In this document: in pieces, positions 8,077-43,365 of the stretch
Numbering within the stretch: the stretch's first letter is position 1
Layout of the letters: each line of letters starts with the position of its first letter
Assembly (NCBI GenBank): GCA_963848835.1
Contig: CAWKFB010000017.1
Coordinates: forward strand, 12,675 to 76,674
Length of the DNA stretch: 64,000 nucleotides
From: Candidatus Aminicenantes bacterium
Lineage (GTDB): Bacteria; Acidobacteriota; Aminicenantia; Aminicenantales; UBA4085
Direction: 5' to 3'
Notes under the pieces: generated by a model
The model's database searches: none
What the model saw: the letters and a program-made list of their open reading frames with translations, nothing else
What the model was told of the DNA's origin: nothing
Made by a program: the position numbers and the translations under genes

Positions 8077-8098
8077 AAACTCATCGGTCCGGCACAGG

Positions 8099-10367: not shown

Positions 10368-10402
10368 TAATTAGGGAATTACGTATACTGTCCCCCGAAT
10401 TA
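10368..10402 (-). repeat. Family-A short palindromic (REP-like) element, copy A5
   Basis: Sequence is taattagggaattacgtatactgtcccccgaatta. The TTA at 10400-10402 is the TAA stop of minus-strand gene 10400..12661. It is inverted relative to A4, about 60 nt away. Confidence 0.7.
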
Positions 10403-28526: not shown

Positions 28527-29390
28527 TTAAAGATCGATCTTGATTCCGGCCGTGAAGGTGAAGCCGGAGAGGTTGAATTCGGCTTTCCGGACGTTGCTCG
28601 CCCCGCCACCCGTGGGCCCGTTCCCGTCGAAGAAGCCGACGACCGGATAGGTTCCCTTGGACCCGGCGAGCTCATAGTACCAGAGATAGTACGTCGAGCT
28701 CGTTCCGTCCGTCGTCCCGGTCGAGGACGTCCCGAAATAGGTCCAGTTCCCCACGAAATTGTAGGCCTTCTCGTAGCGGTAGAGGCCGTCGGCGACGAGG
28801 GAGATCCCCGGGCCGAGGGACAAGCTGAGGCTGAGGCCGGCCTGCAGTCCCACGGTCGGGACCGAGGCCTTGAAGGCTTCGACCTCGGTCAAGGGATCGG
28901 CCGTGCTCGCCGCGTTCCGTTCGCTCGAGAACTGGGCGATCTGGAAGACCGGGCCGCCGAAGACGTCCAGGCCGAATTTTTTCCCCAGGCTCATCTTGTA
29001 ATGGGCGTTCAGGAAGAACGGGATGGCCGAGAGCTGGGGCATGAGCGTCGTATCGACCGTGACCGCGCCCCCGGCGGCGGCGGAAACGGCCGTGACCATG
29101 TCGCTCTTGCCGATCTGGTAATAGCCCCCGCCGAAGCCGACCGCCAGGCGTTTTCCCCAATGGGTGATGATCTCGGCCTGAAAATTGCTCCCGTTCGTGA
29201 GCGCCCGGTACTCCCCGCTGACGCTCGTGGACACGTCGCGAAGGTAGCCAATCCGTCCGGCGGCGGCCGTCTTGTAATCGTCGCCCTGGACCGTGGTCCA
29301 GCCCCCCGTGAGCTTGAAGGAGATCTGCTGGCAGAAGGCCGGCGCGGACAGGACCGCGAGCGCGATGGCGGCGGAGAGCGTTCTTTTCAT
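28527..29390 (-). CDS. Outer-membrane beta-barrel protein (OmpA-N/OmpW-like fold, hypothetical)
   Basis: Start placed at MKRTLSAAIALAVLSAPAFCQQ (ATG 29390, 6 nt after GAGAGG). The upstream MKNK.. codons fall inside the predicted promoter. Beta-strand periodicity ends in FTFTAGIKIDL. Confidence 0.6.
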   Translation of the reverse strand: MKRTLSAAIALAVLSAPAFCQQISFKLTGGWTTVQGDDYKTAAAGRIGYLRDVSTSVSGEYRALTNGSNFQAEIITHWGKRLAVGFGGGYYQIGKSDMVTAVSAAAGGAVTVDTTLMPQLSAIPFFLNAHYKMSLGKKFGLDVFGGPVFQIAQFSSERNAASTADPLTEVEAFKASVPTVGLQAGLSLSLSLGPGISLVADGLYRYEKAYNFVGNWTYFGTSSTGTTDGTSSTYYLWYYELAGSKGTYPVVGFFDGNGPTGGGASNVRKAEFNLSGFTFTAGIKIDL

Positions 29391-29451
29391 GTTCATCCTC
29401 TCGGGGGATGTTTTATTCTTCACGACCCCCCGGTTATGTCAAGGGCGCTTC

Positions 29452-29585
29452 GGGTTGCCCCACGCTCACGGGGAACCCGAGCGGGTTCCCCCCGCGAAAC
29501 GCGGGTCCTCCCTCCCATGTTCGCTTAGGGGCAATCCCTCCGCTCAGCGAGTTTTTCAGAAATGCCAAACGCTCACGGTGCACCC
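29452..29585 (+). repeat. Family-B structured intergenic element, copy B3 (core 29452-29538, half unit 29559-29585)
   Basis: Sequence is gggTTGCCCCacgctcacgGGGAACCCgagcGGGTTCCccCCGCGaaaCGCGGgtcctccctcccatgttcgcttaGGGGCAAtcc, then ..gaaatgccaaacgctcacggtgcacc. It has the same stems and conserved single-stranded blocks as the other copies. Confidence 0.75.
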
Positions 29586-29617
29586 ATCCCGCAAGTACCC
29601 TTCGGAGCCGACGGCAC

Positions 29618-31867
29618 TTAAGCTCGGCGCGGCCGGCTGGCCCGCTTGGAATACCAGACCGAGACGACGACCGCGGTCAGGGCCGCGGCGATGAAGAGGG
29701 CCGTCCCGATCGAGATCCGCTTGAAATGGACGAGGAGCGGCGCGCTCAGGACCGAGACCAGGTTGATGACCTTGATCATCGGGTTGAGGGCGGGCCCGGC
29801 CGTGTCCTTGAGGGGATCGCCGACCGTATCGCCGACGATCGCGGCTTTGTGCTGGGCCGAGCCGCGGCCGCCGTAATGGCCGTCCTCGATGAGCTTCTTG
29901 GCGTTGTCCCAGGCCCCGCCCGAGTTGGCCATGAACACGGCCAGGAGCTGCCCGGACAGGATGACCCCGCCGAGAAACCCTCCCAGGGCCTCGACCCGCA
30001 GCGTCAACCCGACGATGAGCGGGATCATGACGGCGATGACGGCCAGCCCGACGAGCTCCTTCTGGGCGGCGACGGTGCAGATCCCGACGGCCTGGCCGTA
30101 ATCGGGCTTGACCGTGCCTTCCATAACCCCGGGGATCTTGAACTGGCGCCGGACCTCGACCACGATGAGCGAGGCCGCCCGTGAGACGGCGTTGATGGCC
30201 AGCGAGGAGAAGAGCCAGGGGATGGCCCCGCCGATGAGGAGGCCGATCAGGACGAACGGCTCGGAGATGCGGATCCCCGTCTGGAAGAGCTGGGCGGACG
30301 CGGCCACGCCTTCCTGGACCTGGACCTTGGTCACGTCCGTGATGAAGGAGCCGAAGAGGGACACGGCGGCGATGACCGCCGAGCCGATGGCCACGCCTTT
30401 GGTGATGGCCTTGGTCGTATTCCCCACGGCGTCCAGGTCGGCCATCCGCTCCCGGGCGTCGTCGGGCAGTCCGGCCATCTCGCCGATGCCGTTGGCGTTG
30501 TCCGCGATCGGGCCGAAGGAGTCCATGGCCACGTTGTTGCCCGTGAGGGTGAGCATCCCGATGCCGGTCATGGCCACGCCGTAAAGGACGAAGGCGATGG
30601 GCTGTCCCCAATAGATGAGGACGGAGGAGAGGATGGTCGCGGCGAGCACGAGGAGCGTCCAGACCGCCGACTCCATCCCCACGGACAGGCCGGAGAGGAT
30701 GAGGGTCGCCGCGCCCGTCCGGGACGACCGGGCGATCGATTTGACCGGCGTGTATTTCGTGTGGGTGAAATATTTGGTCAGCTCGTCGATCGCGACGGCG
30801 AGGAGAATGCCGACCGCGACCGAAAGGAAGGCGCGCCACTCGTGCATGTAGAAACCGGCCAGGACGGCGAAGGCGGCCAGGCAGATCGCGGCCGAGGAAT
30901 AGAATCCCTTGTTGATGGCTTTCATCGCGTCGCCCGGGGCGCCCTTTTTCCCCTTGACGAGATAGGTCCCGATGATCGAGGAGAAGACGCCGATCCCCCG
31001 GACGAGGAGGGGGAAGATGAGCCATTTGACCTGGCCGGTGATGGCGACGAGGGCCAGGCTGAGGATCAGCCCGGAGACGATCGTCACCTCATAGCTCTCG
31101 AAGATGTCGGCGGCCATCCCGGCGCAGTCGCCGACGTTGTCGCCGACGAGGTCGGCGATGACCGCGGCGTTCCTCGGATCGTCCTCGGGGATGCTGGCCT
31201 CCACCTTGCCGACGAGGTCGGCCCCGACGTCGGCGGCCTTGGTGTAGATCCCGCCGCCGACCCGCATGAACAGGGCGAGGAGGGTCCCGCCGAAGCCGAA
31301 CCCGAGCAGGGCGTCGGGCGCGGCTTTCTGAAAGACGAGGAAGATGATCGTTCCGCCGAAGAGCCCCAACCCGTCGGTCAGCATGCCGGTGATCGTCCCG
31401 GCCCGGTAGGCGATCTGCATGGCCTTGTCGTAGCTCGTCCGGGCGGCGGCGGCGACCCGGACGTTGGCCTGAACCGCGATGCGCATCCCGAACTGGCCGA
31501 CCAGGAGGGAGAACATGGCGCCGAGGATGAACGCGATGGCCCGGCCGAAGCCGATGATGAGCTTGATGTTCGCTTCGGACGTCCCCGGGAAGCGCTCCAG
31601 GGCTTCCGCGGAAGGCGGGACGACGGCCACGCTGAAGAACAGGGCGACCGTCAGGACGGCGATGATGGGAAGGATCGTCCGGAGCTGCCGGGTCAGGTAG
31701 GCGTTCGCCCCCTGCCGGATGGCTTCCCAGACCTCGATCATCCGGGGCGTGCCCTTGTCTTCGCGGAGAACATTCCGCCGCAGAAAGAGGGCATAGGCCA
31801 GGCCCAGGAGGGCGATGCCCAAGACGGCCCACAAGGCGGTGGATTCGAAAGTCGTCGTTTGGATCAT
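29618..31867 (-). CDS. hppA: Membrane-bound H+/Na+-translocating pyrophosphatase
   Basis: 749 aa, polytopic. Hallmark blocks are GGGIYTKAADVGADLVGKVE, DPRNAAVIADLVGDNVGDCAGMAADIFESY, GGAWDNAKK and VGDTVGDPLKDTAGPALN. Confidence 0.95.
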   Translation of the reverse strand: MIQTTTFESTALWAVLGIALLGLAYALFLRRNVLREDKGTPRMIEVWEAIRQGANAYLTRQLRTILPIIAVLTVALFFSVAVVPPSAEALERFPGTSEANIKLIIGFGRAIAFILGAMFSLLVGQFGMRIAVQANVRVAAAARTSYDKAMQIAYRAGTITGMLTDGLGLFGGTIIFLVFQKAAPDALLGFGFGGTLLALFMRVGGGIYTKAADVGADLVGKVEASIPEDDPRNAAVIADLVGDNVGDCAGMAADIFESYEVTIVSGLILSLALVAITGQVKWLIFPLLVRGIGVFSSIIGTYLVKGKKGAPGDAMKAINKGFYSSAAICLAAFAVLAGFYMHEWRAFLSVAVGILLAVAIDELTKYFTHTKYTPVKSIARSSRTGAATLILSGLSVGMESAVWTLLVLAATILSSVLIYWGQPIAFVLYGVAMTGIGMLTLTGNNVAMDSFGPIADNANGIGEMAGLPDDARERMADLDAVGNTTKAITKGVAIGSAVIAAVSLFGSFITDVTKVQVQEGVAASAQLFQTGIRISEPFVLIGLLIGGAIPWLFSSLAINAVSRAASLIVVEVRRQFKIPGVMEGTVKPDYGQAVGICTVAAQKELVGLAVIAVMIPLIVGLTLRVEALGGFLGGVILSGQLLAVFMANSGGAWDNAKKLIEDGHYGGRGSAQHKAAIVGDTVGDPLKDTAGPALNPMIKVINLVSVLSAPLLVHFKRISIGTALFIAAALTAVVVSVWYSKRASRPRRA

Positions 31868-31888
31868 GACTCGCGCTTCCTTTGCCGG

Positions 31889-32719
31889 TCAGTCGACGTG
31901 GAGGTCCCAAGACCGCGGGATCGCGGCCGGGAATTGCCACAGGGACAAGCCGTTGCGGTCGCCGGCGAAGAGCCCGCCCCGGACGCCGCCGCGGTAGCCG
32001 ATCCAGTTGCGGAAGGGGATCTCGTCGAGGAACTCCCCGACGGCGATGACCTTCGTCTTCTTGGAAGGCTTCTTCTCCAGCTCCTCCCGGGCCTCCTCGT
32101 AGCGGCTGACGGCGACGACCTCGGGGTGCTCCTCGCCGAGCTCGGCAAAGAGGACCTGACGGAAGATCTTGCCCGGCCGGTGGGTCGCGTACCAGCCGTA
32201 TTCCTCGGCGGTCAGGTTGGTCATGACGAGGAACGGCACGGGCTCGATGACCAGGAAGGTGCGCGCGTTGCGGCTCCCCGAATAGGGGCGGCCGATGGCG
32301 CCGGCGACCTGCTCCGTGGTCAGGCCCTCGTGGCAGACATGGTTGGTGTAAGTGATGATGGAAACCGGGGCCGACATCTCCAGGAGCTCTCCGGCCGTCT
32401 TGCACAGGAAGAGGCGCTTGAACGCCGAGAGCGGAGTGACGCTGAACCCGTAGTTGGACAGGGCGGTCTTGGTCCGCTTGCCGGCCCGGACCGCGGCGAT
32501 GGCGGCGATCGTGTCGCCCCCCGCGTCCCGCCAGCCGCCCTCGTCCAGGTATTTGAAGGCCGGCCGGTCGCCCTCGAGGGCCAGGTCGACCATGATCGTC
32601 TTCCCGTGGAAGAATTTCCCGGAGCCGGGGCTCCGGTGCTTGGCATAGCCCTGGAGGCCGAGCCCGGTGGCGACGATCAGGCCATAGGGGACGGTCAAAA
32701 TCAAATTCGGATCGCTCAT
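31889..32719 (-). CDS. Conserved-looking cytoplasmic hypothetical protein (276 aa)
   Basis: Start placed at MSDPNLILTVPYG (ATG 32719, strong RBS GAGAGGAG). It has clean, non-low-complexity composition. It lies 22 nt upstream of hppA on the same strand. I recognised no family. Confidence 0.6.
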   Translation of the reverse strand: MSDPNLILTVPYGLIVATGLGLQGYAKHRSPGSGKFFHGKTIMVDLALEGDRPAFKYLDEGGWRDAGGDTIAAIAAVRAGKRTKTALSNYGFSVTPLSAFKRLFLCKTAGELLEMSAPVSIITYTNHVCHEGLTTEQVAGAIGRPYSGSRNARTFLVIEPVPFLVMTNLTAEEYGWYATHRPGKIFRQVLFAELGEEHPEVVAVSRYEEAREELEKKPSKKTKVIAVGEFLDEIPFRNWIGYRGGVRGGLFAGDRNGLSLWQFPAAIPRSWDLHVD

Positions 32720-32771
32720 ATCAACTCCTCTCTGCCTTGGGGAGCCCGCGAAGCGGGCGAAAAGCCCTAAC

Positions 32772-32800
32772 AGGGTACCTTCCGGCCGCGGCTCTGTCAA
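32772..32800 (-). promoter_or_regulatory. Candidate promoter for 31889..32719 (TTGACA-17-TACCCT)
   Basis: The minus strand reads TTGACAgagccgcggccggaaggTACCCT. The leader contains the hairpin GCCCGCttcGCGGGC and an RBS. Confidence 0.4.
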
Positions 32801-32810
32801 GGTTCGCTCC

Positions 32811-32943
32811 GTGATTGCCCAACGCTCACGTTGGAACCCTTCTGGTTCCCCCCCGAATTAGGCGGGGCCCCCCCTCCTGATGTTCGCTTTTGGGCAATCA
32901 CTTCGCTCGGGAGTTTCTCGGAATCGCCCTTCGCTCAAGGGAA
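32811..32943 (+). repeat. Family-B structured intergenic element, copy B1 (core 32811-32901, half unit 32921-32943)
   Basis: Sequence is GTGATTGCCCAAcgctcacgttGGAACCcttctGGTTCCcccCCCCGaattaggCGGGGccccccctcctgatgttcgcttTTGGGCAATCAC. The outer stem is a perfect 12 bp. The tail is gaatcgcccttcgctcaagggaa. It is flanked by two divergent promoters. Confidence 0.8.
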
Positions 32944-32957
32944 CTGTTGCTGGAAAA

Positions 32958-32988
32958 TTGACAAGGCCCGGCCCTCCGGGGCTATAAT
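32958..32988 (+). promoter_or_regulatory. Near-consensus sigma70 promoter for 33024.. (TTGACA-19-TATAAT)
   Basis: Sequence is TTGACAaggcccggccctccggggcTATAAT. The spacer is long at 19 nt. A ~35-nt leader with GGAGA precedes ATG 33024. Confidence 0.5.
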
Positions 32989-33023
32989 GTCGTTTCTTGA
33001 ATCAGATCCGGAGATAGCCAACC

Positions 33024-34253
33024 ATGCTCCACCTCTTCCGTATCCTGAGGATCTCGATGCGGGCCCTCACCCGGAACAAGATGCGGACGTTCCTGACCGC
33101 CCTGGGCATCATCATCGGCATCGCCTCCGTCATCGCCATGGTCAGCATCGGCTCGGGGGCCAAGAGCGCCATCAAGGACCGCTTCGACGCCATGGGCTCG
33201 AACCTCATCTTCGTCCGGCCGGGAAGCGCCCGCATGCAAGGCGTCCGGACGGGCTTCGGCGGCCGAAGCTCGCTCAAAATCGGAGACGTGGGGGCGATCG
33301 AGAGGGAATGTCCCTCGGTCAAGGCGGTTTCGCCGAACATCAACGCCCAAGCCCAGCTCATCTACATGAACAAGAACTGGCGGACCCAGATCCAGGGCGT
33401 CAGCGACAAATACCCCGAAATCCGGAAGTGGGAGATGGAGCAGGGCTCGTTCTTCAACGAGGAGCAGCTCCTCGGCGGGGAGAAGGTCGTCGTCCTGGGG
33501 ACCCAGGTCAAGCAATACCTCTTCGAGGATGACGACCCGATCGGCAAGGTCATCCGCCTCCGCCGCGTCCCCTTCACGGTCATCGGCGTGCTCAAGTCCA
33601 AGGGCCAGGCCGGAGGCATGGGCAGCCGCGACGACCTCGTCTGCGTTCCCTTCACCACCGCCAGCCGGCGGCTGATGCGCCAGACCTTCATCCAATCCAT
33701 CGACATCCAGGCCGTTTCGGCCGAGGCCATTCCCGCGGCCCAGAATGAGATCATCGAGCTCCTCCGCGACCGCCACAAGATCCTGGAGGGCCAGCCCGAC
33801 GACTTCCAAGTCCAGAACATGGCCGAGATCGCGGAAAGCCGCGAGAACGCCATCGGGACGATGACCCTCCTCCTCGGCAGCATCGCCGCCATCTCGCTCC
33901 TCGTCGGCGGGATCGGGATCATGAACATCATGCTCGTTTCGGTGACCGAGCGCATCCGCGAGATCGGCATCCGGATGTCGATCGGGGCCCGGGAGAAGGA
34001 TATCCTGATGCAATTCCTGGCCGAGGCGATCGTCCTGAGCCTGACGGGGGGGGTCCTCGGCATCATCCTCGGCGTGGGATTGTCCAAGCTCCTCAAATAT
34101 ATCCCGATTTTCTCCCGATTCCCGGCCATCGTTTCTCCGGGATCGGTCATCATGGCCGTCGCCTTTTCGGCATCGGTCGGGATCTTCTTCGGGTTCTATC
34201 CGGCCCGCAAGGCCTCCAAGCTCGATCCGATCGACGCCCTGCGCTACGAGTGA
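33024..34253 (+). CDS. MacB/FtsX-type ABC transporter permease (permease only)
   Basis: 409 aa. The N-terminus is LRISMRALTRNKMRTFLTALGIIIGIASVIAMVSIG. A periplasmic MacB_PCD-like region follows, then the FtsX block ..GGIGIMNIMLVSVTERIREIGIRMSIGAREKDILMQFLAEA. Confidence 0.9.
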   Translation: MLHLFRILRISMRALTRNKMRTFLTALGIIIGIASVIAMVSIGSGAKSAIKDRFDAMGSNLIFVRPGSARMQGVRTGFGGRSSLKIGDVGAIERECPSVKAVSPNINAQAQLIYMNKNWRTQIQGVSDKYPEIRKWEMEQGSFFNEEQLLGGEKVVVLGTQVKQYLFEDDDPIGKVIRLRRVPFTVIGVLKSKGQAGGMGSRDDLVCVPFTTASRRLMRQTFIQSIDIQAVSAEAIPAAQNEIIELLRDRHKILEGQPDDFQVQNMAEIAESRENAIGTMTLLLGSIAAISLLVGGIGIMNIMLVSVTERIREIGIRMSIGAREKDILMQFLAEAIVLSLTGGVLGIILGVGLSKLLKYIPIFSRFPAIVSPGSVIMAVAFSASVGIFFGFYPARKASKLDPIDALRYE

Positions 34254-34274
34254 CGGCCGGGACCGAAGCCGCGC

Positions 34275-35459
34275 TCAGTCCGCCCAGAGCGTCTTTCCCG
34301 GGTCGGGCTTGAAGACGCCGTCCCGGGCCTCCTCGATCATCTGGGCGACGAGCAGGTTCCAGCTGATGAAATCCGGCGCGGCCAGCGGCGCCCCCGTCTC
34401 GGCGTGATAGTTCTCGTGCATCATCCCGTTCCGGTCGAGGTCGTCGAGGCAGAGGCGCGTCACGCGTTCGGCGACGGCGCGGGCTTCCGCCGCGTATCCG
34501 GCGCGGAGGAGGGCGTGCATGACCATCCAGTTGGCGTGCGGCCAGATCGGGCCTTGCCAGTTGGAATAGGGCTTGAGGACGTTGGCATTGTTGTAGAGCG
34601 GCTCGTCGGCGGCGAGGGAGCGGACGCCGCGAGGCGACCACAGCCGCCGGGGCTCGAGGACGTTTCGCTCGACGACCGCCCGGACGCGCTCCGGAGAAGC
34701 CAGTCCCGCCCAGAGCGGCACCAGCCCGCTATACGCGATGCACGGGACGCGCGAGCGTTCGACGCAATCATAGCTTTGGTAAAAGCCGGCCCCGGGATCC
34801 CAGAGGGTCTCATTGACCGCGTCCGTCAGGGCCCGGGCGCGCTCACGGAAGCTCCGCGCGTCTTCGGCGCGGCCCAGGCGCGCGGCGAGAACGGCCATGG
34901 CTCGATAATCGAGGACCGTGAAGGCGTTGACGTCCGGGGCGGCCATGCTGTTGTGGTAGCGCCGGACGAGGGAGGGATTGTTGTCGGCCCCCGACTCCAT
35001 GCTGTCCCACCATTTGACGAGCCCCGTGGCCGGGTCTCCCATCTTCCGCTCCCGGTACGTGACGACGGAGACCATCGTCTCCCAGAGCGGGCCGACCCAG
35101 CCCCAATCGTCGAGCGCCCGGGAGGCGTAGTAAGCGGCCTGGCCCATGAGAGGCTTGATGTGATAGAGCCGCGCGTCGCGGCCCGACCACGGCCGGATCC
35201 CGCCCGGGGTATGGCCGTCCGGTTCCGCGTGGCGGAGAAAATTCAGGCACCAGTTCTTGAGATAGATCCCCTGCGAACGATCGGCCGAGATGAGATGCAG
35301 GCCGACGAAGAAGGCGTCCCAGTCCCAGAGCTCCTCGTAGACGCCGTTGGGGACGATGTAATCATAAGGCAAGGCGCCGTTCGCTTTGCGAATGACGCGG
35401 CGGGCGAGAGGACCGATCTTGTCCCGGGCCTGCGCGGCGAGGATGTCCAAGGGTTCCAT
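34275..35459 (-). CDS. Six-hairpin (alpha/alpha)6 glycoside hydrolase, GH63/GH37-like (MGH1-like)
   Basis: Start placed at MEPLDILAAQ (ATG 35459); the TTG at 35495 is the -35 box. Motifs are ..ELWDWDAFFVGL.., ..VKWWDSMESGADNNPS.. and ..YSNWQGPIWPHANWMVMHALLRAG. The family call is from memory. Confidence 0.65.
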   Translation of the reverse strand: MEPLDILAAQARDKIGPLARRVIRKANGALPYDYIVPNGVYEELWDWDAFFVGLHLISADRSQGIYLKNWCLNFLRHAEPDGHTPGGIRPWSGRDARLYHIKPLMGQAAYYASRALDDWGWVGPLWETMVSVVTYRERKMGDPATGLVKWWDSMESGADNNPSLVRRYHNSMAAPDVNAFTVLDYRAMAVLAARLGRAEDARSFRERARALTDAVNETLWDPGAGFYQSYDCVERSRVPCIAYSGLVPLWAGLASPERVRAVVERNVLEPRRLWSPRGVRSLAADEPLYNNANVLKPYSNWQGPIWPHANWMVMHALLRAGYAAEARAVAERVTRLCLDDLDRNGMMHENYHAETGAPLAAPDFISWNLLVAQMIEEARDGVFKPDPGKTLWAD

Positions 35460-35467
35460 GGAGGAAG

Positions 35468-35495
35468 GGTATAGCCGCGGCGCGCTCGGTGTCAA
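35468..35495 (-). promoter_or_regulatory. Candidate promoter for 34275..35459 (TTGACA-16-TATACC), leaderless geometry
   Basis: The minus strand reads TTGACAccgagcgcgccgcggcTATACC, followed by 8 nt (cttcctcc) before ATG 35459. There is no SD. Confidence 0.4.
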
Positions 35496-35557
35496 CCTTT
35501 TACCGCTAAAACCAGTATATATGAAGGATTCGGAAATTCTGAATCGAAAGAAGTGCT

Positions 35558-38230
35558 ATGCTCATATCCAAGATAGGCCGCCGGGCCGCGCTCCCGGCAC
35601 TCATGCTCCTCGCCGCCGGCTTCGCCGCGGCCCAGGACAAAGCCAAGCCCGCCCCCGAGCCGGCCAAGAAATGCTACGTCACCGCCCGCCTCGCATCCGC
35701 CCCTCCTGAGATCGACGGGAAGCTCGACGACGAAGCTTGGTCCCGGGTTCCCTGGTCGGACGGGTTCATCCAGAGCGAACCATACGAGGGACGGGAGCCG
35801 TCGGAGAAGACGGCCTTCAAGATCGCCTACGACGACAAGAACATCTACGTGGGCGTGCGGGCCTACGACTCCCAGCCGGGGAAGGTCGAGCGCCGGATGG
35901 CCCGCCGCGACCAGGCCGGCGGCGACTCGATCGACGTCGGCTTCGACAGCCTGTTCGATCATCTCACCGCCTTCATCTTCTCGGTCAACGCCGCGGGCGT
36001 CAAGGCGGACCAGCTCGTGGCGAACGACGGCCAATCGAGCGGCAACGGGGACGACATGAGCTGGGACCCGATCTGGGACGTGGCGACATCGGTCGACGCC
36101 GAAGGCTGGACGGCCGAGATGCGCATTCCCTTGTCGCAGCTCAAGTTCGCCGCCCGGGACGATCAGGTCTGGGGGCTCCAGGTCCGCCGGACCCTGTTCC
36201 GCAACAATGAATCCTCGGATTGGCAGTTCATCCCCCGGAACACGTCCGGACTCGTTCATTGCTTCGGAGAGCTGAAAGGCCTGTCGGGCCTGGCCGCTCC
36301 CCACCAGGTCGAGATCCTGCCGTATACGGTCGGAAGCCTCCAGTACGACCGGGCCGTGCCCGGGAATCCGTTCGCCACGGGGAGGGAACGGACGCTCCAG
36401 GGCGGCGTGGACGGTAAGGTGGGGATCACGAGCGACCTGACTATGAACTTCACCATCAACCCGGATTTCGGCCAGGTCGAAGCCGATCCCTCCGTGGTCA
36501 ACCTGACCGCCTTCGAGACTTTCTATGAGGAGAAGCGGCCCTTTTTCGTCGAGGGGCGCAACATCCTTCACTATCAGCTCATGGGCGGTGACGGCGACTT
36601 CTCCATGGACAATCTCTTCTATTCGAGGCGGATCGGGCGGAATCCGCACCTTACGCCGTCCGCCGACGGATACGTGGACATGCCCCAGGCGACCTCGATC
36701 CTCGGCGCCTTCAAGCTGACGGGCAAGACCCGCTCGGGGATCTCCATCGGCGTCCTCGAAAGCGTCACTTCTCGCGAGACCGCGTCGATCTTCTCCGGGG
36801 GCTTGACGTCGCAGGAGCCTGTCGAGCCCCTGACGAACTATTTCGCCCTGCGGGCCCAGAAGGATTTCAACCGCGGAGCGACGATCGTCGGCGGGATGCT
36901 GACGGCGGTCAACCGCAGCCGGGCCGACGACGGCCTCGATTTCCTCCATCGCGCCGCGTACGCCGGGGGGATCGATCTCTACCACAGCTGGAAGGACAAG
37001 AACTATTACGTCTCGCTCAAGGCCGTGGCCAGCCGCGTGGAAGGGACGCCGGCGGCCATCCTGGCGACGCAGCGCTCGTCCGCCCGCTATTTCCAGCGGC
37101 CGGACGCCGATTACCTCGAGCTCGACCCGAGCCGGACGTCGCTCAGCGGCACGGGCGGGACCCTTGAGTTCGGCAAGGCGGGCGGCGGCCAGTTGATGTA
37201 CGTGGCCGGGTTCTCCTGGCGCTCCCCCGGGCTCGAGCTCAACGACGTCGGATACCTGAGGTCTGGGGACACCTCCATGCAGTATTTCTGGGCGGGCTAC
37301 CGCATCTACGAGCCGTTCGGCCCGTTCCGCTCGGTCAGCCTGAACCTCAACCAGTGGATGGGCTGGAATTTCGGCGGGGAGAGGATCTTCGCCGGCGGGA
37401 ACGTCAACGGCAACGTCCAATTCAAGAACTACTGGAGCGCCGGCGGCGGCTACAACATCCAAGGTGAGCAGCTCGCCGCGAGCTCGCTCCGGGGCGGCCC
37501 GTCGCTCCGCCTGCCCGGCGGATATTCGGTCTGGTTCAACCTCCAGACCGACTCGAGGAAAAAGCTCCGCTTCTTCGTCTTCGGGAACGGGTTCGAGCGG
37601 CGCGGCGGGGAAGCCAGCAGCTGGAGCTGGCAGCCGGGGCTGACCATCATCCCGAGCCCCGCCCTCCAGGTCTCGATCAATCCCTCGTATTCGACGAACC
37701 GGAGCATCCTCCAGTACATCGGGACCGTCTCCATGGCCGGAGCGCCCCGCTATCTCTTCGGGACGATCGACCAGAAGACGCTCGGGTTGACCCTCCGGCT
37801 CAGCTACAGCCTGACCCCGGACCTGACCATCCAGTATTACGGCATGCCCTTTCTTTCCGCCGGCCGCTACGGCGAGTTCAAGCGCATCACCGACTCCCGG
37901 GCGAAGGTCTTCGCGTCGCGGTACCGCCTTTTCGGCGAGACGGCGTCCTATGACGCCGCGGCGAAGCGCTATTCCGTGGACGAGGACGGCGACGGGGCCG
38001 CCGACTATTCCTTCGGCAATCCCGACTTCAACTTCCGCCAGTTCCGCTCCAACCTCGTCCTGCGCTGGGAATACGTGCCCGGATCGGCCCTCTTCGTCGT
38101 CTGGTCGCAGGGCCGGACCGGATACCTTACGGACGGATCGTTCGACTTCGGGCGGGATTTCGACGGGCTCTTCGGGGTCCATCCGACGAACGTCTTCCTG
38201 ATCAAGTTCTCCTACTGCTTCCAGCTTTAA
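35558..38230 (+). CDS. CBM9/DOMON-like plus DUF5916-type large beta-barrel protein, secreted
   Basis: 890 aa with signal MLISKIGRRAALPALMLLAAGFAAAQ. The N-terminal part is PPEIDGKLDDEAWSRVPWSDGFIQSEPYEG..FKIAYDDKNIYVGVRAYD. A long beta-rich C-terminal part ends FLIKFSYCFQL. Confidence 0.7.
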   Translation: MLISKIGRRAALPALMLLAAGFAAAQDKAKPAPEPAKKCYVTARLASAPPEIDGKLDDEAWSRVPWSDGFIQSEPYEGREPSEKTAFKIAYDDKNIYVGVRAYDSQPGKVERRMARRDQAGGDSIDVGFDSLFDHLTAFIFSVNAAGVKADQLVANDGQSSGNGDDMSWDPIWDVATSVDAEGWTAEMRIPLSQLKFAARDDQVWGLQVRRTLFRNNESSDWQFIPRNTSGLVHCFGELKGLSGLAAPHQVEILPYTVGSLQYDRAVPGNPFATGRERTLQGGVDGKVGITSDLTMNFTINPDFGQVEADPSVVNLTAFETFYEEKRPFFVEGRNILHYQLMGGDGDFSMDNLFYSRRIGRNPHLTPSADGYVDMPQATSILGAFKLTGKTRSGISIGVLESVTSRETASIFSGGLTSQEPVEPLTNYFALRAQKDFNRGATIVGGMLTAVNRSRADDGLDFLHRAAYAGGIDLYHSWKDKNYYVSLKAVASRVEGTPAAILATQRSSARYFQRPDADYLELDPSRTSLSGTGGTLEFGKAGGGQLMYVAGFSWRSPGLELNDVGYLRSGDTSMQYFWAGYRIYEPFGPFRSVSLNLNQWMGWNFGGERIFAGGNVNGNVQFKNYWSAGGGYNIQGEQLAASSLRGGPSLRLPGGYSVWFNLQTDSRKKLRFFVFGNGFERRGGEASSWSWQPGLTIIPSPALQVSINPSYSTNRSILQYIGTVSMAGAPRYLFGTIDQKTLGLTLRLSYSLTPDLTIQYYGMPFLSAGRYGEFKRITDSRAKVFASRYRLFGETASYDAAAKRYSVDEDGDGAADYSFGNPDFNFRQFRSNLVLRWEYVPGSALFVVWSQGRTGYLTDGSFDFGRDFDGLFGVHPTNVFLIKFSYCFQL

Positions 38231-38236
38231 GCTCCG

Positions 38237-38368
38237 GGATCGTCCAACGCTCACGTTGGAACCCTTCTGGTTCCCCCCCGAATTAGGCGGGGCCCCCCCT
38301 CCTGATGTTCGCTTATGGACGATCCCTTCGCCGACGAGTTCTTCAGAATCGTTCAACGTGCTTATAGG
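38237..38368 (+). repeat. Family-B structured intergenic element, copy B2 (core 38237-38325, half unit 38346-38368)
   Basis: Sequence is GGATCGTCCAacgctcacgttGGAACCcttctGGTTCC..CCCCGaattaggCGGGG..cctcctgatgttcgcttaTGGACGATCC. The core is identical to B1 over ~65 nt. The outer stem is re-written on both strands. Confidence 0.8.
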
Positions 38369-38412
38369 AGGGACGTCTACCGGCAGTCCGCCCCGAGTCA
38401 ATCCTCTCCATA

Positions 38413-38441
38413 TTGACTTTGGGATTCATTTATTCGATGAT
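38413..38441 (+). promoter_or_regulatory. Candidate promoter for the small ORF/rSAM pair (TTGACT-17-GATGAT)
   Basis: Sequence is TTGACTttgggattcatttattcGATGAT in an AT-rich patch, ~37 nt upstream of ATG 38479. Confidence 0.4.
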
Positions 38442-38478
38442 GGGAAACAACGTCAAGTCATCAAGCGCGGGAGGGATC

Positions 38479-38721
38479 ATGGACAAAAAGACGATGCAAA
38501 AAGCCTCGGCCCGGAAAGCGGTCGGACGCCCCAAGGTCGTGGGGCTGCCCTTCTACTTCAAGCAGATCGAGACGTTCCTGAATGAAGCCGAGGTTCCGGT
38601 GTCGATGATGTCGGACCTGCTGAAGGCGCGAAACGCGATGGGGAAGGCCCTCTTGCTCATCTATGGCTTCGAGTCGAGCCAGGTCTGCCTGGATGACTTG
38701 CCCCTCTTCCCCCCGATCTGA
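38479..38721 (+). CDS. 80-aa hypothetical protein immediately upstream of the radical SAM/SPASM gene (candidate precursor peptide or accessory protein)
   Basis: RBS GGGAGGG lies 3 nt before ATG 38479: MDKKTMQKASARKAVGRPKVVGLPFYFKQIETFLNEAEVPVSMMSDLLKARNAMGKALLLIYGFESSQVCLDDLPLFPPI. It is on the same strand as the rSAM gene, 44 nt upstream. Coding status is unproven. Confidence 0.4.
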   Translation: MDKKTMQKASARKAVGRPKVVGLPFYFKQIETFLNEAEVPVSMMSDLLKARNAMGKALLLIYGFESSQVCLDDLPLFPPI

Positions 38722-38765
38722 TCCATCCGGACGGATGCCGACGGCCGAGGGACGCTCGTTCCTCC

Positions 38766-39950
38766 ATGGAAAAGTCCGTGTTTCCGGGCGGGTTTCGGAC
38801 CCCGGCGATGGAGTTTTCGACCTTCACGGTCATCCTGACCGATCGCTGCAATTTTCACTGCTCCTATTGTTATCAGGCCAGAAAAAACCTCGATCTCGGA
38901 ATTTCGCCGATCGCGGAAGCGCTGGACTTCCTCTTTCCCCGCTTCACCCGGGATTGCACCGTCAATTTCTACGGCGGGGAGCCGCTCCTGGCTTACGAAA
39001 CCCTGCGACGGACGGTTGTCCATCTCCAGCGGTTGAACCGCGGACGAGAGAAGAGGGTCCGTTACGCCCTCTCGACCAACGGATCTCTCCTGACCGAGGA
39101 GGCGCTGGAGTTCCTGGACGAACACTCCTTCCACCTCCTCTTGAGCTTCGATGGATGGGCCCAGGACATCGGCCGGGAGGACGGGAGCTTCGATCGGCTT
39201 GTGTCGCTCATCCCGGCGATCTTGAAACACCGGAAGATCGCCCTTGAAACGAACAGCGTCTTCACGGCGAGAACGATCCGTCATCTCGCATCCTCCGTGC
39301 GGCTTATCCTCGACCTCGGCGTCCCCAGGTTCCATGCCGGGGTTTCCATCCAGGTTCCCTGGCACCCCTCCGCCCTCGCTCGCCTGAAGCGGGAAATCGC
39401 GGCGGTTCGGGGCTGGTTCCTCGAACGATACGATCGTCTCGCTGACATCCCATGGGTCGAGATGGCGAAGACGGCGGAGAGAGGCGTCCAGAGCTGCGAC
39501 GCGGGCCGGGGGCAGCTGGCCCTGGCGGCGGACGGAAGGCTCTGGGGGTGCTTCCTCTTCCCCCATTATTTCGACGGCAGGACGAAGATCGCCGGCGGGA
39601 CAAAATACGGCTTCGGCAAGGTGGGGGCGTTTCTCCGCGACCCTGAGGCCATCTATGCCCGGGTCATGTCGGCCATCGCCGGGCTCTGGATGGCCAACGC
39701 CCGAACGCCGGAGAGACATTGCGTCATGTGCGACGAGATCGAGTCGTGCTGGGTTTGCCCCGTAGCCGCCGCGTTTTTAAGCGGGGAAATGGGAATCATC
39801 GCCTCCCGGACGTGCGGAATGGCGAAATTCATGCGCCGGGAAAAGGAGATCTTCGCCAAGGGTTTCCTGGAGAAGCGGCGGGCCGCGGGTCCGGCCGTCA
39901 CGGCCGCGGGCTTTTCCCGAGAAGGGCGATCCGTCTCTTCGCCTCGCTGA
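38766..39950 (+). CDS. Radical SAM enzyme with C-terminal SPASM domain (peptide-modifying maturase type)
   Basis: The radical SAM cluster motif is CNFHCSYC, followed by FYGGEPLL. The C-terminal seven-Cys pattern is CDAGRGQLALAADGRLWGC ... CVMCDEIESCWVCP ... RTCG (CX12GX4C, CX2CX5CX2C, C). The start could instead be MEFSTF at 38808. Confidence 0.85.
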   Translation: MEKSVFPGGFRTPAMEFSTFTVILTDRCNFHCSYCYQARKNLDLGISPIAEALDFLFPRFTRDCTVNFYGGEPLLAYETLRRTVVHLQRLNRGREKRVRYALSTNGSLLTEEALEFLDEHSFHLLLSFDGWAQDIGREDGSFDRLVSLIPAILKHRKIALETNSVFTARTIRHLASSVRLILDLGVPRFHAGVSIQVPWHPSALARLKREIAAVRGWFLERYDRLADIPWVEMAKTAERGVQSCDAGRGQLALAADGRLWGCFLFPHYFDGRTKIAGGTKYGFGKVGAFLRDPEAIYARVMSAIAGLWMANARTPERHCVMCDEIESCWVCPVAAAFLSGEMGIIASRTCGMAKFMRREKEIFAKGFLEKRRAAGPAVTAAGFSREGRSVSSPR

Positions 39951-42900
39951 CCTCCGCCCGGCCGGGATCGGCGTCTTTCCACATTTCGACGAATCTCTCG
40001 AATTGGCCCGCCGCTTCGGCCGCCGCGTTTTGTTTCTGGCGGAGGATTCCCAGCCGAAAGTAGCTCAGGGCGTAAAGATCTCCCCAGCGCAGCCGCCCGG
40101 TCGTCAGAGTCTGGATTTCTCGATAGAGGCTCGCGGCTTTCTCGAGATTCCCGGCTTGATCATAGGCGACGGCCAGGGACTCCATGAAGAAGGCCTGCTC
40201 ATCCGACCGTTCCCGCTGCTGGGGAAGAAGGGCGCACGCTTTTTCCAAATCATCGACGGCGTCCCCGGGCCGGCCTTCGGCAAGAGCGATCTTGCCCCGG
40301 AGATGATGAAAATATCTCATGTGTTTGAGGTTTCCGTATCGTTCGATCGACTGCCTGAGCTCGAGGGACACCGTCCCGGCCTCATCGGGCCGTCCGAGCC
40401 CGACCTCGGCGAGTCCGAGCAGATGCAGCGCGGGCCTGAGGTTATACGATCTCCCGGCCTTGCGGCAGGCCTCGATGATCGGACGCAGGATTTCCTCGGC
40501 CTCGGAAAAGCGGCCTTCGCGGATGAGGAGGTTCCCCAGCTCCAAAAGGAGTTCGATCTCTCCGAACTCCTGCTTCAACCGCCGGGCGTTATCGATCGCC
40601 CGCCGGATCTCGTCCCGGCCCTCTCCATATCGGCCCCGCTGGAACGCGATCCGGGCCAGTCCGATCCGGCCCCGAAAATCCCCGCTCCCCCCCTCGCGTT
40701 TCCTGAGGCGTTCGTAGGAGGTTCGGGCCGACGTCAGATCCCCCCGCAGGTGCTCGAGGATGGCTTGGAATTCGAGAGAGGCCGGATCGTCCGGATCGCG
40801 GGCGAGATCCTTCCCGATCGCTTCAGCCGCCGCGTCGTATCGGCCGAGGATGATCTCGATCAAAACCGTTTGGGTGGCGAAGAACCGCACCTCCGGGAAG
40901 ATCCCTCCGCTGGCCTGCAGGAGATCGAGCGCTTTTCCGTACCATCCCTTGGCCGTATAGACGAAGGCCAGGTTCTCGTGCGCGGCCATGCGCCTGGGGT
41001 AGAGCTTGAGGATCTTTTCGTACTGCTCGACGGCCGCATCCCATTCTTCCATGTTCCGGTAGATCGAGCCGAGAGAGGACATCCCCGACTCATCGTTGGG
41101 ATAAGAAGCCAGCAAGCTCCTGTAGCTTTCGATGGCCTTGAGGGGGGTCTCCTCCAGGAGCAAGGCGGCGAAACCCTGGATCAGATAACGGTCACGGAGG
41201 GAAACACGGTCCGATAAGGACAAGGCCTTTTGGATATTGGCCTTGGCCAAGCCGATGTTTCCCGCATACGAGTGATTGACGGCCAATTTCCAGTAAGCCA
41301 TCGCGTATTCGGGGTCCAATCCGACGGCCTTCTCCAGGGCGCGGATGCTCCCGGCGTGGTCGGCGAGGGCGAAAAGCCGTTCACCCTCCACGTAAGCGCC
41401 GAGCGCTTCGAGCGAGGGGGTCGTGATCTTGCCCAGCTCCCGGCGATATTCGCCGGCCGCATCCTCGGGGAACGTGATGAAGATGGACCGGACCTTAGAA
41501 TTCAGCTCCTGGACCATGGCCAGGAGGTCCTCGGCCTTGCCCTCGGCCTCGGCCGAGTCGGCGATCGTCGAAGAATCCGCCTTACGGATCTTGGCGCTGA
41601 TCCAGAGCTTGTCGCCCGCCCGGACGAAGCTCGGGAGGACGAAATAGTCGATGTTCTCGGACGCGCCGATTTTATCCAGCGTTCCCGATACGTGCTGGAC
41701 GGCGTCGAGCTGGCCCATCTTCGTCAGGGCTTGGAGGAGCCGGTCGAGAGGCAGAATACTGAGGTATTTGGACTGGGCCAGGCCGGTGATCATCAGGTCG
41801 GCGATCTCCCAGCGCAGATGGTCCAGGCTCCGGTCCTGGGACGCGTTGACGGAGAACAGGACGGCCACGGCGACCCGCGTATCCCCCGCGGCGGGCGGGA
41901 TCGGCTTTTTTTTCAGCCCGAGCCAGATCCCTCCGAGGGCGAGGCCGAGGATCACGACTGCGGACAGGCCGGCGCGGAAACGGCGCGCCCGGCGCGAGCG
42001 GGGCACGGCCGGTCCGCCCGGGGTCCGGGAAGCCCGCAGGTCCTCGAGCAAAGCGCCGGCGGACGGATACCGGTCTTCCATCTTTTTTTCAAGACATTTC
42101 AACACGATGCGGTCGAGCGCGGCCGGGATCCCGGAATTGACCTTCGAGGGCGGGACGGGGACCTCTGAGGCGTGCTTCTCGGCATAGCCCTCGATCGTCG
42201 ACGCCCGGAAGGGAAGCTTGCCCGTGAGCATCTCATAGAGGATGACCCCCACGGCATAGATGTCCGAGCGCTCGTCCGCCTTCCCCCCTCGCGCCTGCTC
42301 CGGGGCGAGATACTGAGGGGTCCCATAGATTTTTCCGGACTTTTCGAGAGAAGGGCCGGACAGCGTGCGGGCCAGTCCGAAGTCGGTGATATAGGCCTTG
42401 CCCGAATGGTCGACCAGGATGTTCTGCGGCTTCAGGTCCTGATGGACGATCCCTTTGGCGTGGGCGGCCGCGAGGGCCTCGCAGACCTGCTCGATGAGCC
42501 GTAACGCCGTCTCCGGGCTCAGCTGCCCCGAGGTCCGGATCAGGTCATCGAGGTTCCCCCCCTTGATGTAATCCATCGAGATGTACCGGACGGGCCCGAC
42601 TTCCCCGAGGTCGTGAGTCCGGACGACGTTCTCATGGGAGACGGACCGGGCCAGCAGGGTTTCCTTCTTGAAGTGGGCGATCATCGTCCGGCTGGACGAA
42701 TATTCCGGCCGGATCATCTTCAGGGCGACGACGGTGCCGAGCTCGACGTCCTCGGCCTTATAGACCCGGCCCATGCCGCCCCGCCCGATCTCCTCGATGA
42801 TCCGGTACCTCGGGCCGAAAGACGCCCCCGGGGCGAAATAGAGCTCCTCCTTGAGCCGCGTCTCGAGCGGACCGGGGATGGTCAGCGTCGCCGCGGCGTC

Positions 42901-42996
42901 GGAAACGGCCTGTCCGCACTTGCTGCAGTATTGGCTTTTCGAGGGGATCTCGGCCTTGCAACGCGGGCAAACGACGGTCGCGACGGTCTCCCCCAT
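39898..42996 (-). CDS. Ser/Thr protein kinase with N-terminal zinc ribbon, TM segment, extracytoplasmic domain and TPR repeats
   Basis: 1032 aa. The zinc ribbon is CPRCKAEIPSKSQYCSKCG. Hanks kinase motifs are GRGGMGRVYKA, VALKMI, HQDLKPQNIL, DFGLAR and GTPQYLAPE. The TM segment is LSAVVILGLALGGIWLGL. A long TPR region follows (..AMAYWKLAVNHSYAGNIGLAKANIQKAL..). Confidence 0.9.
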   Translation of the reverse strand: MGETVATVVCPRCKAEIPSKSQYCSKCGQAVSDAAATLTIPGPLETRLKEELYFAPGASFGPRYRIIEEIGRGGMGRVYKAEDVELGTVVALKMIRPEYSSSRTMIAHFKKETLLARSVSHENVVRTHDLGEVGPVRYISMDYIKGGNLDDLIRTSGQLSPETALRLIEQVCEALAAAHAKGIVHQDLKPQNILVDHSGKAYITDFGLARTLSGPSLEKSGKIYGTPQYLAPEQARGGKADERSDIYAVGVILYEMLTGKLPFRASTIEGYAEKHASEVPVPPSKVNSGIPAALDRIVLKCLEKKMEDRYPSAGALLEDLRASRTPGGPAVPRSRRARRFRAGLSAVVILGLALGGIWLGLKKKPIPPAAGDTRVAVAVLFSVNASQDRSLDHLRWEIADLMITGLAQSKYLSILPLDRLLQALTKMGQLDAVQHVSGTLDKIGASENIDYFVLPSFVRAGDKLWISAKIRKADSSTIADSAEAEGKAEDLLAMVQELNSKVRSIFITFPEDAAGEYRRELGKITTPSLEALGAYVEGERLFALADHAGSIRALEKAVGLDPEYAMAYWKLAVNHSYAGNIGLAKANIQKALSLSDRVSLRDRYLIQGFAALLLEETPLKAIESYRSLLASYPNDESGMSSLGSIYRNMEEWDAAVEQYEKILKLYPRRMAAHENLAFVYTAKGWYGKALDLLQASGGIFPEVRFFATQTVLIEIILGRYDAAAEAIGKDLARDPDDPASLEFQAILEHLRGDLTSARTSYERLRKREGGSGDFRGRIGLARIAFQRGRYGEGRDEIRRAIDNARRLKQEFGEIELLLELGNLLIREGRFSEAEEILRPIIEACRKAGRSYNLRPALHLLGLAEVGLGRPDEAGTVSLELRQSIERYGNLKHMRYFHHLRGKIALAEGRPGDAVDDLEKACALLPQQRERSDEQAFFMESLAVAYDQAGNLEKAASLYREIQTLTTGRLRWGDLYALSYFRLGILRQKQNAAAEAAGQFERFVEMWKDADPGRAEVSEAKRRIALLGKSPRP

Positions 42997-43005
42997 GGCG
43001 ATGCC

Positions 43006-43034
43006 ATCATAGCGAGGGCGGAGAGGGCTGTCAA
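43006..43034 (-). promoter_or_regulatory. Near-consensus promoter for the kinase (TTGACA-17-TATGAT), leaderless geometry
   Basis: The minus strand reads TTGACAgccctctccgccctcgcTATGAT, followed by 9 nt (ggcatcgcc) before ATG 42996. There is no SD. Confidence 0.5.
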
Positions 43035-43044
43035 CGAACCAAGG

Positions 43045-43282
43045 CCCGGCTCGGGTTCCCCTTGTGAGCTAAGGGCGATTCGGATCAGGACGCCTTTTCT
43101 GACTTTGATCTCAAATTATCTACCTCTCCTGCCTCCCCTATTACTCGGGAAGGACTGCATGTAGGCGTCCTTCCTTCATGTCGGCGACGGGATCGCCCAT
43201 AAGCGAACATCAGGAAGGAGGACCCGCGCCTTGCGCGGGGGGGACCCGCTCGGGTTCCCCTTGTGAGCTTATAGGCGATCCC
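43045..43282 (-). repeat. Family-B structured intergenic element, copy B4 (inverted; core 43189-43282, half unit 43045-43083, ~105-nt insert between)
   Basis: The reverse complement reads GGGATCGCCtataagctcacaaGGGGAACCCgagcGGGTCCCCcCCCGCGCaagGCGCGGGtcctccttcctgatgttcgcttatGGGCGATCCC. The half unit reads gaatcgcccttagctcacaaggggaacccgagccgg. The insert carries its own inverted repeats (AGGACGCC/GGCGTCCT and GGAAGGAC/GTCCTTCC). Confidence 0.75.
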
Positions 43283-43365
43283 GAAGCTCTCCCGTTGACA
43301 ATTGGAACGGCCTGTGCGACCCTTCAGGCGCGGATTCGGGGGGATTCCCCGACGAAGGAGTCACG

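Follow-up and report, generated by a model that had tools for sequence, protein, structure and literature searches.

The window considered here, a stretch of 64,000 nucleotides (nt) from the Candidatus Aminicenantes contig CAWKFB010000017.1, contains four copies of a structured intergenic element, family B, whose outer stem changes in sequence and stays paired. Does such an element represent a new noncoding RNA or a mobile palindromic repeat? An earlier note on this DNA had offered both readings, the second as a bacterial interspersed mosaic element (BIME) or miniature inverted-repeat transposable element (MITE). The repeat reading agrees with a family that is large, patchily distributed, present in both orientations and in all intergenic classes, and that includes tandem, truncated and chimeric variants. 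The noncoding RNA reading is not supported, as the element has no promoter of its own, the host promoter boxes lie downstream of it, and wobble pairs are not in excess. We consider it probable that family B, which belongs to an uncultured lineage of Candidatus Aminicenantes, is a selfish and non-autonomous palindromic repeat of the type that comprises BIMEs, MITEs and the hairpin-forming REP (repetitive extragenic palindromic) doublets known as REPINs. By analogy, its closest counterpart would be the REPIN/BIME type of repeat.

Structure of the four copies

Sequence inspection finds the four copies at the positions given in the earlier note, each ~102 nt long and each with a trailing half unit. 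One fold is common to all of them, composed of an outer stem, P1, and two hairpins, P2 and P3, and P1 varies by compensatory substitutions. The P1 arms read exactly as had been claimed: GTGATTGCCCAA/TTGGGCAATCAC in copy 1, GGATCGTCCA/TGGACGATCC in copy 2, TTGCCCC/GGGGCAA in copy 3 and GGGATCGCC/GGCGATCCC in copy 4. Copies 1 and 2 have the same core throughout and differ by compensated pairs in P1. A MAFFT alignment of the four loci has a mean column identity of 70%, and RNAalifold on the four copies reveals an 11-bp P1 in which four pairs are altered on both sides. Compared to its shuffles, each copy folds with a z of –4.2 to –5.7, and the reverse strands fold equally well (z –3.3 to –5.8). 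The blocks that had been described as conserved and unpaired are paired in part: GCTCAC and TTCGC pair through the GC of each, and this pairing co-varies in copies outside the search-pattern selection described below.

The basic unit of family B consists of two inverted arms of ~20–24 nt, GCTCCGGGATYGCCCA..GCTCAC and its imperfect mirror. The paired arms form a long hairpin with the apex TCAC...ATGTTC, and in most copies P2 and P3 are two extra perfect hairpins within this apex, which turns it into a three-way junction. The usual 3' sequel is a T-rich linker and then the half unit, in which the arm appears for a third time, as a direct copy. A combination of nhmmer and an arm scan confirms the half units at 32918–32950, 29555–29586 and 43045–43083 (minus strand), and weakly at 38340–38377. 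That of copy 1 repeats arm A, GCTCA and the start of P2 and then ends; that of copy 4 stops ~6 nt short of the –35 box of a kinase gene.

Size of the family and its host lineage

The search pattern GCTCAC-N1-6-GGAACC-N30-55-ATGTTCGCTT has at least 120 matches in metagenome stretches (sediment and peat contigs). A covariance model (CM) made from 11 copies of one subfamily, with a hit cut-off of E<1e-10, retrieves 112 full-length copies in ~0.63 Mb of pattern-matched contigs, which is a lower bound for the family; the four window copies score E = 4e-29 to 9e-14. Family B thus comprises more than 100 palindromic intergenic repeats, undescribed before, in an uncultured lineage of Candidatus Aminicenantes. 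Aminicenantes (OP8) are bacteria that abound in sediments and are uncultured, and the nearest named relatives of the MacB-like and hppA proteins of the window are from Candidatus Aminicenantes.

In 185,579 GTDB species genomes the core pattern has four matches only, in unrelated taxa and apparently by chance. The arm pattern has 10 matches in GTDB representatives, one of them in an Aminicenantes metagenome-assembled genome (MAG; L294) together with one diverged copy (37.5 bits), and no match in viral contigs. The CM finds no copy in 40 MacB loci from genome contigs, Aminicenantes MAGs included. The lineage that carries family B seems to be absent from, or hidden in, the public genome collection. 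No GTDB species representative exceeds 73% identity to the window hppA, yet metagenome contigs reach 95%. Synteny of the window with the best MacB relative (L205, 75% identity) is limited to a single shared gene and is uninformative.

The earlier note did not recognize the element as any RNA family, in agreement with Rfam 15, which at the gathering score has no match in the whole window; nor has it any in 20 related loci totalling 112 kb. At E≤10 over 29300–43500 there are seven weak hits, none of which spans a full unit, linker or half unit; one of them, RF02133 (32973–33045, minus strand), lies just 3' of the copy 1 half unit. The literature that we searched holds no description of any repeat family in Aminicenantes.

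Covariation of the stems

The alignment of the 112 copies, which was fitted to the model, has standard pairs in 93.7% of stem cells, compared to 82.9% after shuffling and 34–56% when the partners are slid, and both-side changes occur at 25 of the 31 pairs. Covariation exceeds chance: none of 500 shuffles reaches the observed values on any measure. At P1 position 19:144, 62 copies have C:G and 39 have U:A; at position 24:139, 84 copies have A:U and 23 have C:G. When the inner part is folded singly, 106 of 120 copies form two hairpins. These single-sequence folds comprise 34 distinct hairpin sequences for P2 and 53 for P3, with perfect stem-loops in 100/106 P2 and 87/106 P3. In P2 the double changes at 41:67 and 43:65 probably reflect one subfamily that is shifted in register. 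The search pattern itself dictated GCTCAC, GGAACC and ATGTTCGCTT. Eight full copies were found by the model and not by the pattern; TCAC and ATGTTC are still there, and the inner P1 co-varies in these copies, for example CCCATGGC with GCCATGGG. The covariation of the family B stems is real.

Functional RNA normally accepts wobble pairs far more readily than A·C. In P1, 22 cells are G:U or U:G and 34 are A·C or C·A, thus wobbles are not favoured. Since compensatory changes are reported for mobile DNA of the REPIN type as well (PMC3116915), covariation alone is no sign of RNA.

Variants and exchange between copies

Units range from 67 to 118 nt, with imperfect arms of 16–24 nt. The 67-nt units (L171, L172, L114) consist of P1 and a TCAC-N5-ATGTTC loop and do without P2 and P3, and a second short type has a CACATAACAAGG loop (L155, L180). 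One unit (L196), whose 3' half is the mirror of its 5' half, forms a perfect palindrome of 35 bp; in another (L169) a repeat of a different family, D, is nested in place of P3. Tandem arrays of mixed subfamilies have a 147-nt period and a truncated final unit.

The T-rich linker is present in 84/112 copies and a well-kept half unit at a fixed distance in 43/112, and 4 of these 43 second units reach ATGTTCGC within the examined 120 nt. The variable truncation points agree better with a half unit that is a truncated tandem unit. We also considered the half unit as an alternative pairing partner that co-evolves with P1 and rejected this, as the correlation between an arm and its own half unit is weak (similarity 0.681 vs 0.649 for random pairs; 17 of 2000 permutations reach the observed value).

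A paralogous copy in L176 has the rare P1 of copy 1 and agrees with it over 12 nt of 5' flank, yet the P2/P3 cores of the two differ, which suggests recombination or conversion between copies. By the same token, the P1 differences between copies 1 and 2 may be as old as their identical cores or older. The homology of the copy 1 half unit with the L176 copy stops at GCTCA.

Presence and absence in close relatives

We traced hppA homologues at 95, 92, 91, 89 and 87% identity to their own contigs. The closest (L285, 95% amino acid identity in hppA) is syntenic over ~21 kb with window 23.4–44.8 kb at 68–91% nucleotide identity, with 75–91% over the 38.4–43.0 kb and 32.9–35.5 kb blocks that flank copies 1, 2 and 4. 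The CM has no hit in L285 at E≤1, and there is no full copy at any of the four sites, which are far shorter than in the window (Table 1). The copy 4 site of L285 retains a short-type solo arm (GCTCCGGGATCGCCCATGCCTCACATAACAAGGC), and the copy 2 site a 19-nt arm-like remnant. In L290 (91%) both covered sites are empty. In L289 (92%) the copy 1 site is empty, and the copy 3 site (L289:4774–4943) has two inverted 5' halves (arm, GCTCAC, P2) that enclose an unrelated, G+C-rich stretch of ~90 nt; beyond this composite the contig continues for 25 nt. An orthologue of copy 4, with one compensated P1 pair different, is found in L100 (89% nucleotide identity over 5.8 kb), in tandem with a second unit of a different subfamily. 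The content of these spacers turns over far faster than the genes.

Genomic context and promoters

According to gene calls from a crude in-house codon-usage caller, 111 of 121 non-redundant copies are outside any called open reading frame (ORF). The neighbouring genes are co-directional with the copy in sense (23) or antisense (11), divergent (18) or convergent (18), and these classes do not differ from the background intergenic classes of the same contigs (chi-square p = 0.10). Family B is present in both orientations. The median length of an element-free spacer is 22 nt between co-directional genes, 36 nt between convergent and 115 nt between divergent ones; element-bearing spacers are ~300 nt. 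Family B occupies the few dispensable bases of these very compact spacers, flush with a stop codon or between –35 boxes. Because the spacers are so compact, a unit can be flush with a stop codon or 4–7 nt from a –35 box, and the median gap to a co-oriented 5' gene is 5 nt. The promoter proximity of family B is a by-product of very short spacers.

The TTGAC(A/T) boxes that the earlier note placed 3' of the half units are found at 32958, 38413 and 43034 (minus strand). The host –35/–10 boxes of the MacB, radical SAM operon and kinase genes lie downstream of the element. At the copy 1 site L285 has the same TGTCAAG ... TTGACA-N19-TATAAT layout, with matching boxes at the other sites too. As the boxes are conserved in a relative that does not have the element, the element must lie upstream of the transcription start. 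That the element itself supplies a –35 box is ruled out by the boxes in the element-free L285 and by the small number of copies with GTCAA nearby: it occurs within 16 nt of the 5' end in 15 of 113 copies, 12 of which have a divergent 5' gene. Over the 30 nt that precede the unit no conservation is seen, and the element therefore brings no promoter along. We likewise rejected a riboswitch or 5' leader, given the conserved downstream boxes and the fact that every orientation class is occupied, and a hammerhead or other known ribozyme, since CUGAUG is in the wrong junction strand and Rfam has no hit. A scan for intrinsic terminators flags no site at any copy, and its total for the region is 9 vs 9.5 in shuffles; the T-run comes ~15 nt after P1, behind merely a 4-bp hairpin, which is not the layout of a terminator.

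Comparison with known repeat systems

REPINs in Pseudomonas fluorescens SBW25 are inverted REP doublets that form hairpins in single-stranded DNA (ssDNA) or mRNA and are mobilized by REP-associated tyrosine transposases (RAYTs); compensatory changes are common, tandem clusters occur “plus an additional REP sequence”, and singlets are remnants (PMC3116915). Family B similarly has two inverted conserved arms around a less conserved spacer that form a long hairpin in ssDNA or RNA, and it is extragenic, multi-copy and patchy between lineages, with tandem clusters that carry an extra arm and with solo-arm remnants. It differs in its arm, GCTCCGGGATYGCCCAACGCTCAC, which has a mere 3-bp self-complement (GGG..CCC) and no GTAG-like 5' tetranucleotide, in its spacer, which usually contains two further perfect hairpins, and in its fixed T-rich linker and direct half unit.

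The earlier note had suggested looking for a RAYT or a related transposase. A scan for HUH motifs and tblastn reveal two RAYT genes on contigs that also carry family B, neither of them flanked by family B arms. One (L115:3773–4531, minus strand) matches Pfam Y1_Tnp with E 1.5e-12, and the other (L195:2230–2907, minus strand) is 46% identical to it. Each is flanked by its own short palindromes, two copies on each side: GGGGACACAATACTATGTCCCC in L115 and GGGGACGTAGCACTCGTCGCACCC in L195. The lineage therefore holds at least two classical REP–RAYT systems besides family B. Between facing family B copies 0.6–0.7 kb apart (L145, L156, L169) there is no called gene, and we found no parent insertion sequence with the same ends.

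Other systems resemble family B in part. Like the BIMEs of enterobacteria and BOX elements of Streptococcus pneumoniae, it is a mosaic of short modules in alternating orientation with set linkers, a variable number of modules and gene-end or intergenic sites, and it mixes with other modules (families C and D). Unlike them it belongs to a different host phylum and has no known sequence similarity to them, and nothing points to binding of integration host factor (IHF) or gyrase or to mRNA stabilization in family B. MITEs such as the Correia elements of Neisseria and the enterobacterial repetitive intergenic consensus or intergenic repeat units (ERIC/IRU) are also non-coding elements of ~70–160 bp with imperfect terminal inverted repeats of 16–24 nt, a stable hairpin if transcribed, positions adjoining promoters or gene ends, and presence/absence polymorphism between relatives. 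In family B, by contrast, the stems co-vary rather than keep one transposase-binding sequence, no target-site duplication can be seen in the diverged spacers, no parent insertion sequence was found, and the adjoining promoters are the host's. With integron attC sites it shares an imperfect palindrome of ~60–140 nt in which structure is kept more than sequence.

A proposed mechanism and its alternatives

If family B is a selfish repeat, its spread or copying would take place at the level of DNA; the probable intermediate is folded, either single-stranded or a hairpin, and would be read by a structure-specific enzyme provided in trans. Propagation may be restricted to copies in which the arms still pair; alternatively, mismatches may be corrected with the opposite arm as template. 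Under either the pairing requirement or arm-templated correction, co-varying stems would arise with no function at the RNA level. The tandem arrays, solo arms and deletions could result from recombination between direct arms. Effects on adjoining genes are likely incidental.

Several observations weigh against this interpretation. No mobilizing gene with family B arms was found in ~0.75 Mb of lineage sequence, and both RAYTs have other palindromes at their sides. At the four copies and the L285 sites neither a target-site duplication nor a clean empty site can be made out, as the spacers have diverged and the half unit blurs the 3' boundary. Solo arms at two of the L285 sites imply that some of the differences may be deletions, not insertions. 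Copies behind gene ends are more often sense than antisense (58 vs 34, p = 0.016), and the context counts are weakened by the crude gene calls. Finally, the upkeep of the stems, together with the TCAC...ATGTTC junction retained in copies outside the pattern, exceeds the simple decay of a dead repeat and would fit a functional RNA too.

A domesticated cis-acting RNA at the 3' end of the upstream gene, whose three-way junction and small hairpin with a U-run would shield the mRNA against 3' exonucleases, modulate termination or hold up the terminating ribosome, with selection acting on the RNA fold, would account for this sense preference, modest as it is, and for the strongly preserved stems. 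Such 3'-end mRNA roles have been described for the REPs of E. coli. Moreover, in 34 of the 58 copies with a co-oriented 5' gene the stop codon is within 12 nt of the element, and the T-rich linker follows directly after P1 in three quarters of the copies. We nevertheless regard such a role as unlikely for the family: copies at gene ends are antisense in ~40% of cases, a quarter of all copies sit between divergent promoters and so precede both transcription starts, the terminator scan flags no element and counts no more sites than in shuffles, G:U is not favoured over A·C, and the closest relative has the element at none of the four sites. An RNA-level role of sense copies in 3' untranslated regions is possible and compatible with a selfish repeat. 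An independent structured RNA, be it a small RNA gene, a riboswitch-like leader or a new multi-copy ribozyme, could explain the three-way junction, its invariant nucleotides and the co-varying stems, and would have to be new, as no known family matches. We find this highly improbable, since there is no conserved upstream sequence to act as its own promoter, the host promoters downstream of copies 1, 2 and 4 are older than the element, there is no orientation rule relative to genes, the 67-nt forms do without P2 and P3, wobble pairs are not in excess, and close relatives have no copy. In the junction TCAC, CCCC and CCUCCYGAUGUUC are invariant while the stems co-vary freely. This might be expected of a transcribed, new self-processing or protein-recruiting RNA motif riding on a mobile repeat, or of a folded-DNA substrate of an unrecognized structure-specific mobilization system unrelated to RAYTs; both seem to us distinctly unlikely. 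Small ribozymes that ride on retrozymes offer a parallel for the former.

Protein binding to the DNA could also preserve structure over sequence and the apical bases, either at an attC-like folded ssDNA recombination site or at a platform for nucleoid or regulatory proteins, comparable to the IHF/gyrase sites in BIMEs. The sequence GCCCAAC, a fit to the attC inverse core RYYYAAC, is present in many 5' arms, and copies lie beside promoters in compact spacers. In the 3' arm, however, T(A/T)TGGGC stands in place of GTTRRRY, the neighbours are ordinary chromosomal genes of mixed orientation rather than a cassette array, copies occur in both orientations, and none of the 35 window ORFs scanned against Pfam hits an integrase family. 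A regulatory site would be expected in the closest relative and is absent there despite the same promoters. We therefore give little credence to a protein site. Nor do we put more than slight trust in an old repeat that spread once and is now moved only by homologous recombination, gene conversion and slippage, with its stems kept by palindrome-templated repair. Such a history would suit copy 1 and its L176 paralogue, which are alike in P1 and flank and unlike in their cores, copies 1 and 2 with one core and different P1, the mirrored halves of L196, the slight excess of similarity between an arm and its own half unit, and the solo arms of L285. Recombination alone, however, cannot seed new spacers, and more than 100 dispersed sites need a dispersal step. 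In addition, L285 has a spacer of just 44 nt at copy 1 (from one –35 box to the other) and of 9 nt at copy 3 (from the –35 box to the hppA stop), and neither contains an arm trace.

Features of the window and companion repeats

The coordinates of the family B modules, the host boxes around them and the corresponding sites in L285 are given in Table 1.

Table 1 Family B modules and neighbouring features in the window, with site lengths in the closest relative
Feature	Position	Strand	Details
Copy 1, full unit	32806..32906	+	P1 32811-32822 with 32890-32901, P2, P3, junction motifs TCAC and ATGTTC; fold z –4.2; CM 64 bits, E 9e-14
Copy 1, linker (GGGAGTTTCTCGG) and half unit	32907..32950	+	nhmmer 32918-32950, arm scan 32919-32938
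Copy 2, full unit	38231..38331	+	Starts on the base immediately 3' of the DUF5916 stop codon (TAA, 38228-38230)
Copy 2, linker and degenerate half unit (GAATCGTTCAACGTGC), then partial family C module (GGAGGGACGTCTACCGGCAGTCC)	38332..38400	+	Sequence, nhmmer/arm scan
Copy 3, full unit	29447..29545	+	CM 121.7 bits; bounded by the –35 box of a minus-strand gene (28527-29423) and the hppA stop; antisense to both genes
Copy 3, linker (TCAGCGAGTTTTTCAG), half unit (AAATGCCAAACGCTCAC), degenerate tail up to the hppA stop	29546..29617	+	Sequence, nhmmer/arm scan
Copy 4, full unit, inverted	43184..43287	-	CM 87 bits; P1 lengthened to 17 bp by an ATAAGC/GCTTAT variant
Family C module between copy 4 and its half unit	43084..43183	-	Sequence
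Copy 4, half unit: arm A, GCTCAC, P2-like hairpin	43040..43083	-	nhmmer 43045-43081, E 1.5e-4; arm scan 43064-43083
Host –35 box of divergent 276-aa gene (TTGACA), not family B	32795..32800	-	5 nt from the copy 1 5' end
Comparable host –35 boxes	29437-29442 (-), 43295-43300 (+), 32958-32963 (+), 38413-38418 (+), 43029-43034 (-)		Boxes kept in L285
Copy 1 site (unit, linker and half unit)	32802-32953		Window 152 nt vs L285 36 nt
Copy 2 site (DUF5916 gene and copy 2)	35479-38406		Window 2928 nt vs L285 32 nt
Copy 3 site	29444-29621		Window 178 nt vs L285 13 nt
Copy 4 site (copy 4, family C module, half unit)	43041-43270		Window 230 nt vs L285 21 nt

Together with copy 2, the DUF5916/CBM9 gene forms a 2.9-kb indel relative to L285 (window 35479–38406). 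At this site in L285 the promoters of a glycoside hydrolase (GH) gene and of the small-ORF/radical-SAM operon are 19 nt apart. In the window this operon (38413–39950) consists of a small ORF, listed with 102 aa (80 aa in L285), and then a radical SAM enzyme; the two are kept together in L285 and may be a peptide-modification pair. The radical SAM ORF (end 39950) and the convergent kinase ORF (end 39898) overlap at their 3' ends by ~50 nt (window 39898–39950).

Other repeats adjoin family B or occur elsewhere in the window. The family C module (GGAAGGACGCCTACATGCAGTCCTTCCCGAGTAATAGGGGAGG...), found at 43084–43183 (minus strand) and in part at 38369–38400 (plus strand), has no Rfam match, and in L085, L118, L166, L169 and L179 it directly follows family B units. 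With an outer stem and a hairpin of its own, the family D module (GTTCCTTTCCCGAAGCGCC...CCCCCCATGTTAGTTGGGGGGCAGGGG) is found in L092, L096, L126 and L147 and, nested, at L169:893–1074. It joins family B at GTTC/TCC junctions, and junctions with families C and D occur in many loci. A second repeat family (TAATTCGGGAATTACGTATACTGTCCCCCGAATTA) is present in the window at 74–108, 1325–1359, 8049–8087 (inverted) and 10368–10402. Its GGGGGACAGTAT core is like the palindromes that flank the L115 RAYT, which suggests that it is probably a classical REP. It has CCCCCGAATTAGG in common with P3 of copies 1 and 2.

Implications

Family B would serve as a marker for one sub-lineage of Aminicenantes and would account for contig breaks and intergenic length differences in assemblies of this lineage. 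For RNA discovery it advises caution, as palindromic mobile DNA can yield strong covariation and a neat three-way junction. If the cognate enzyme is found, family B would provide a tractable case of structure-specific DNA recognition. More broadly, it would show that REPIN-like, structure-preserving replicators exist outside Proteobacteria, beside classical RAYT–REP pairs in the same genomes.

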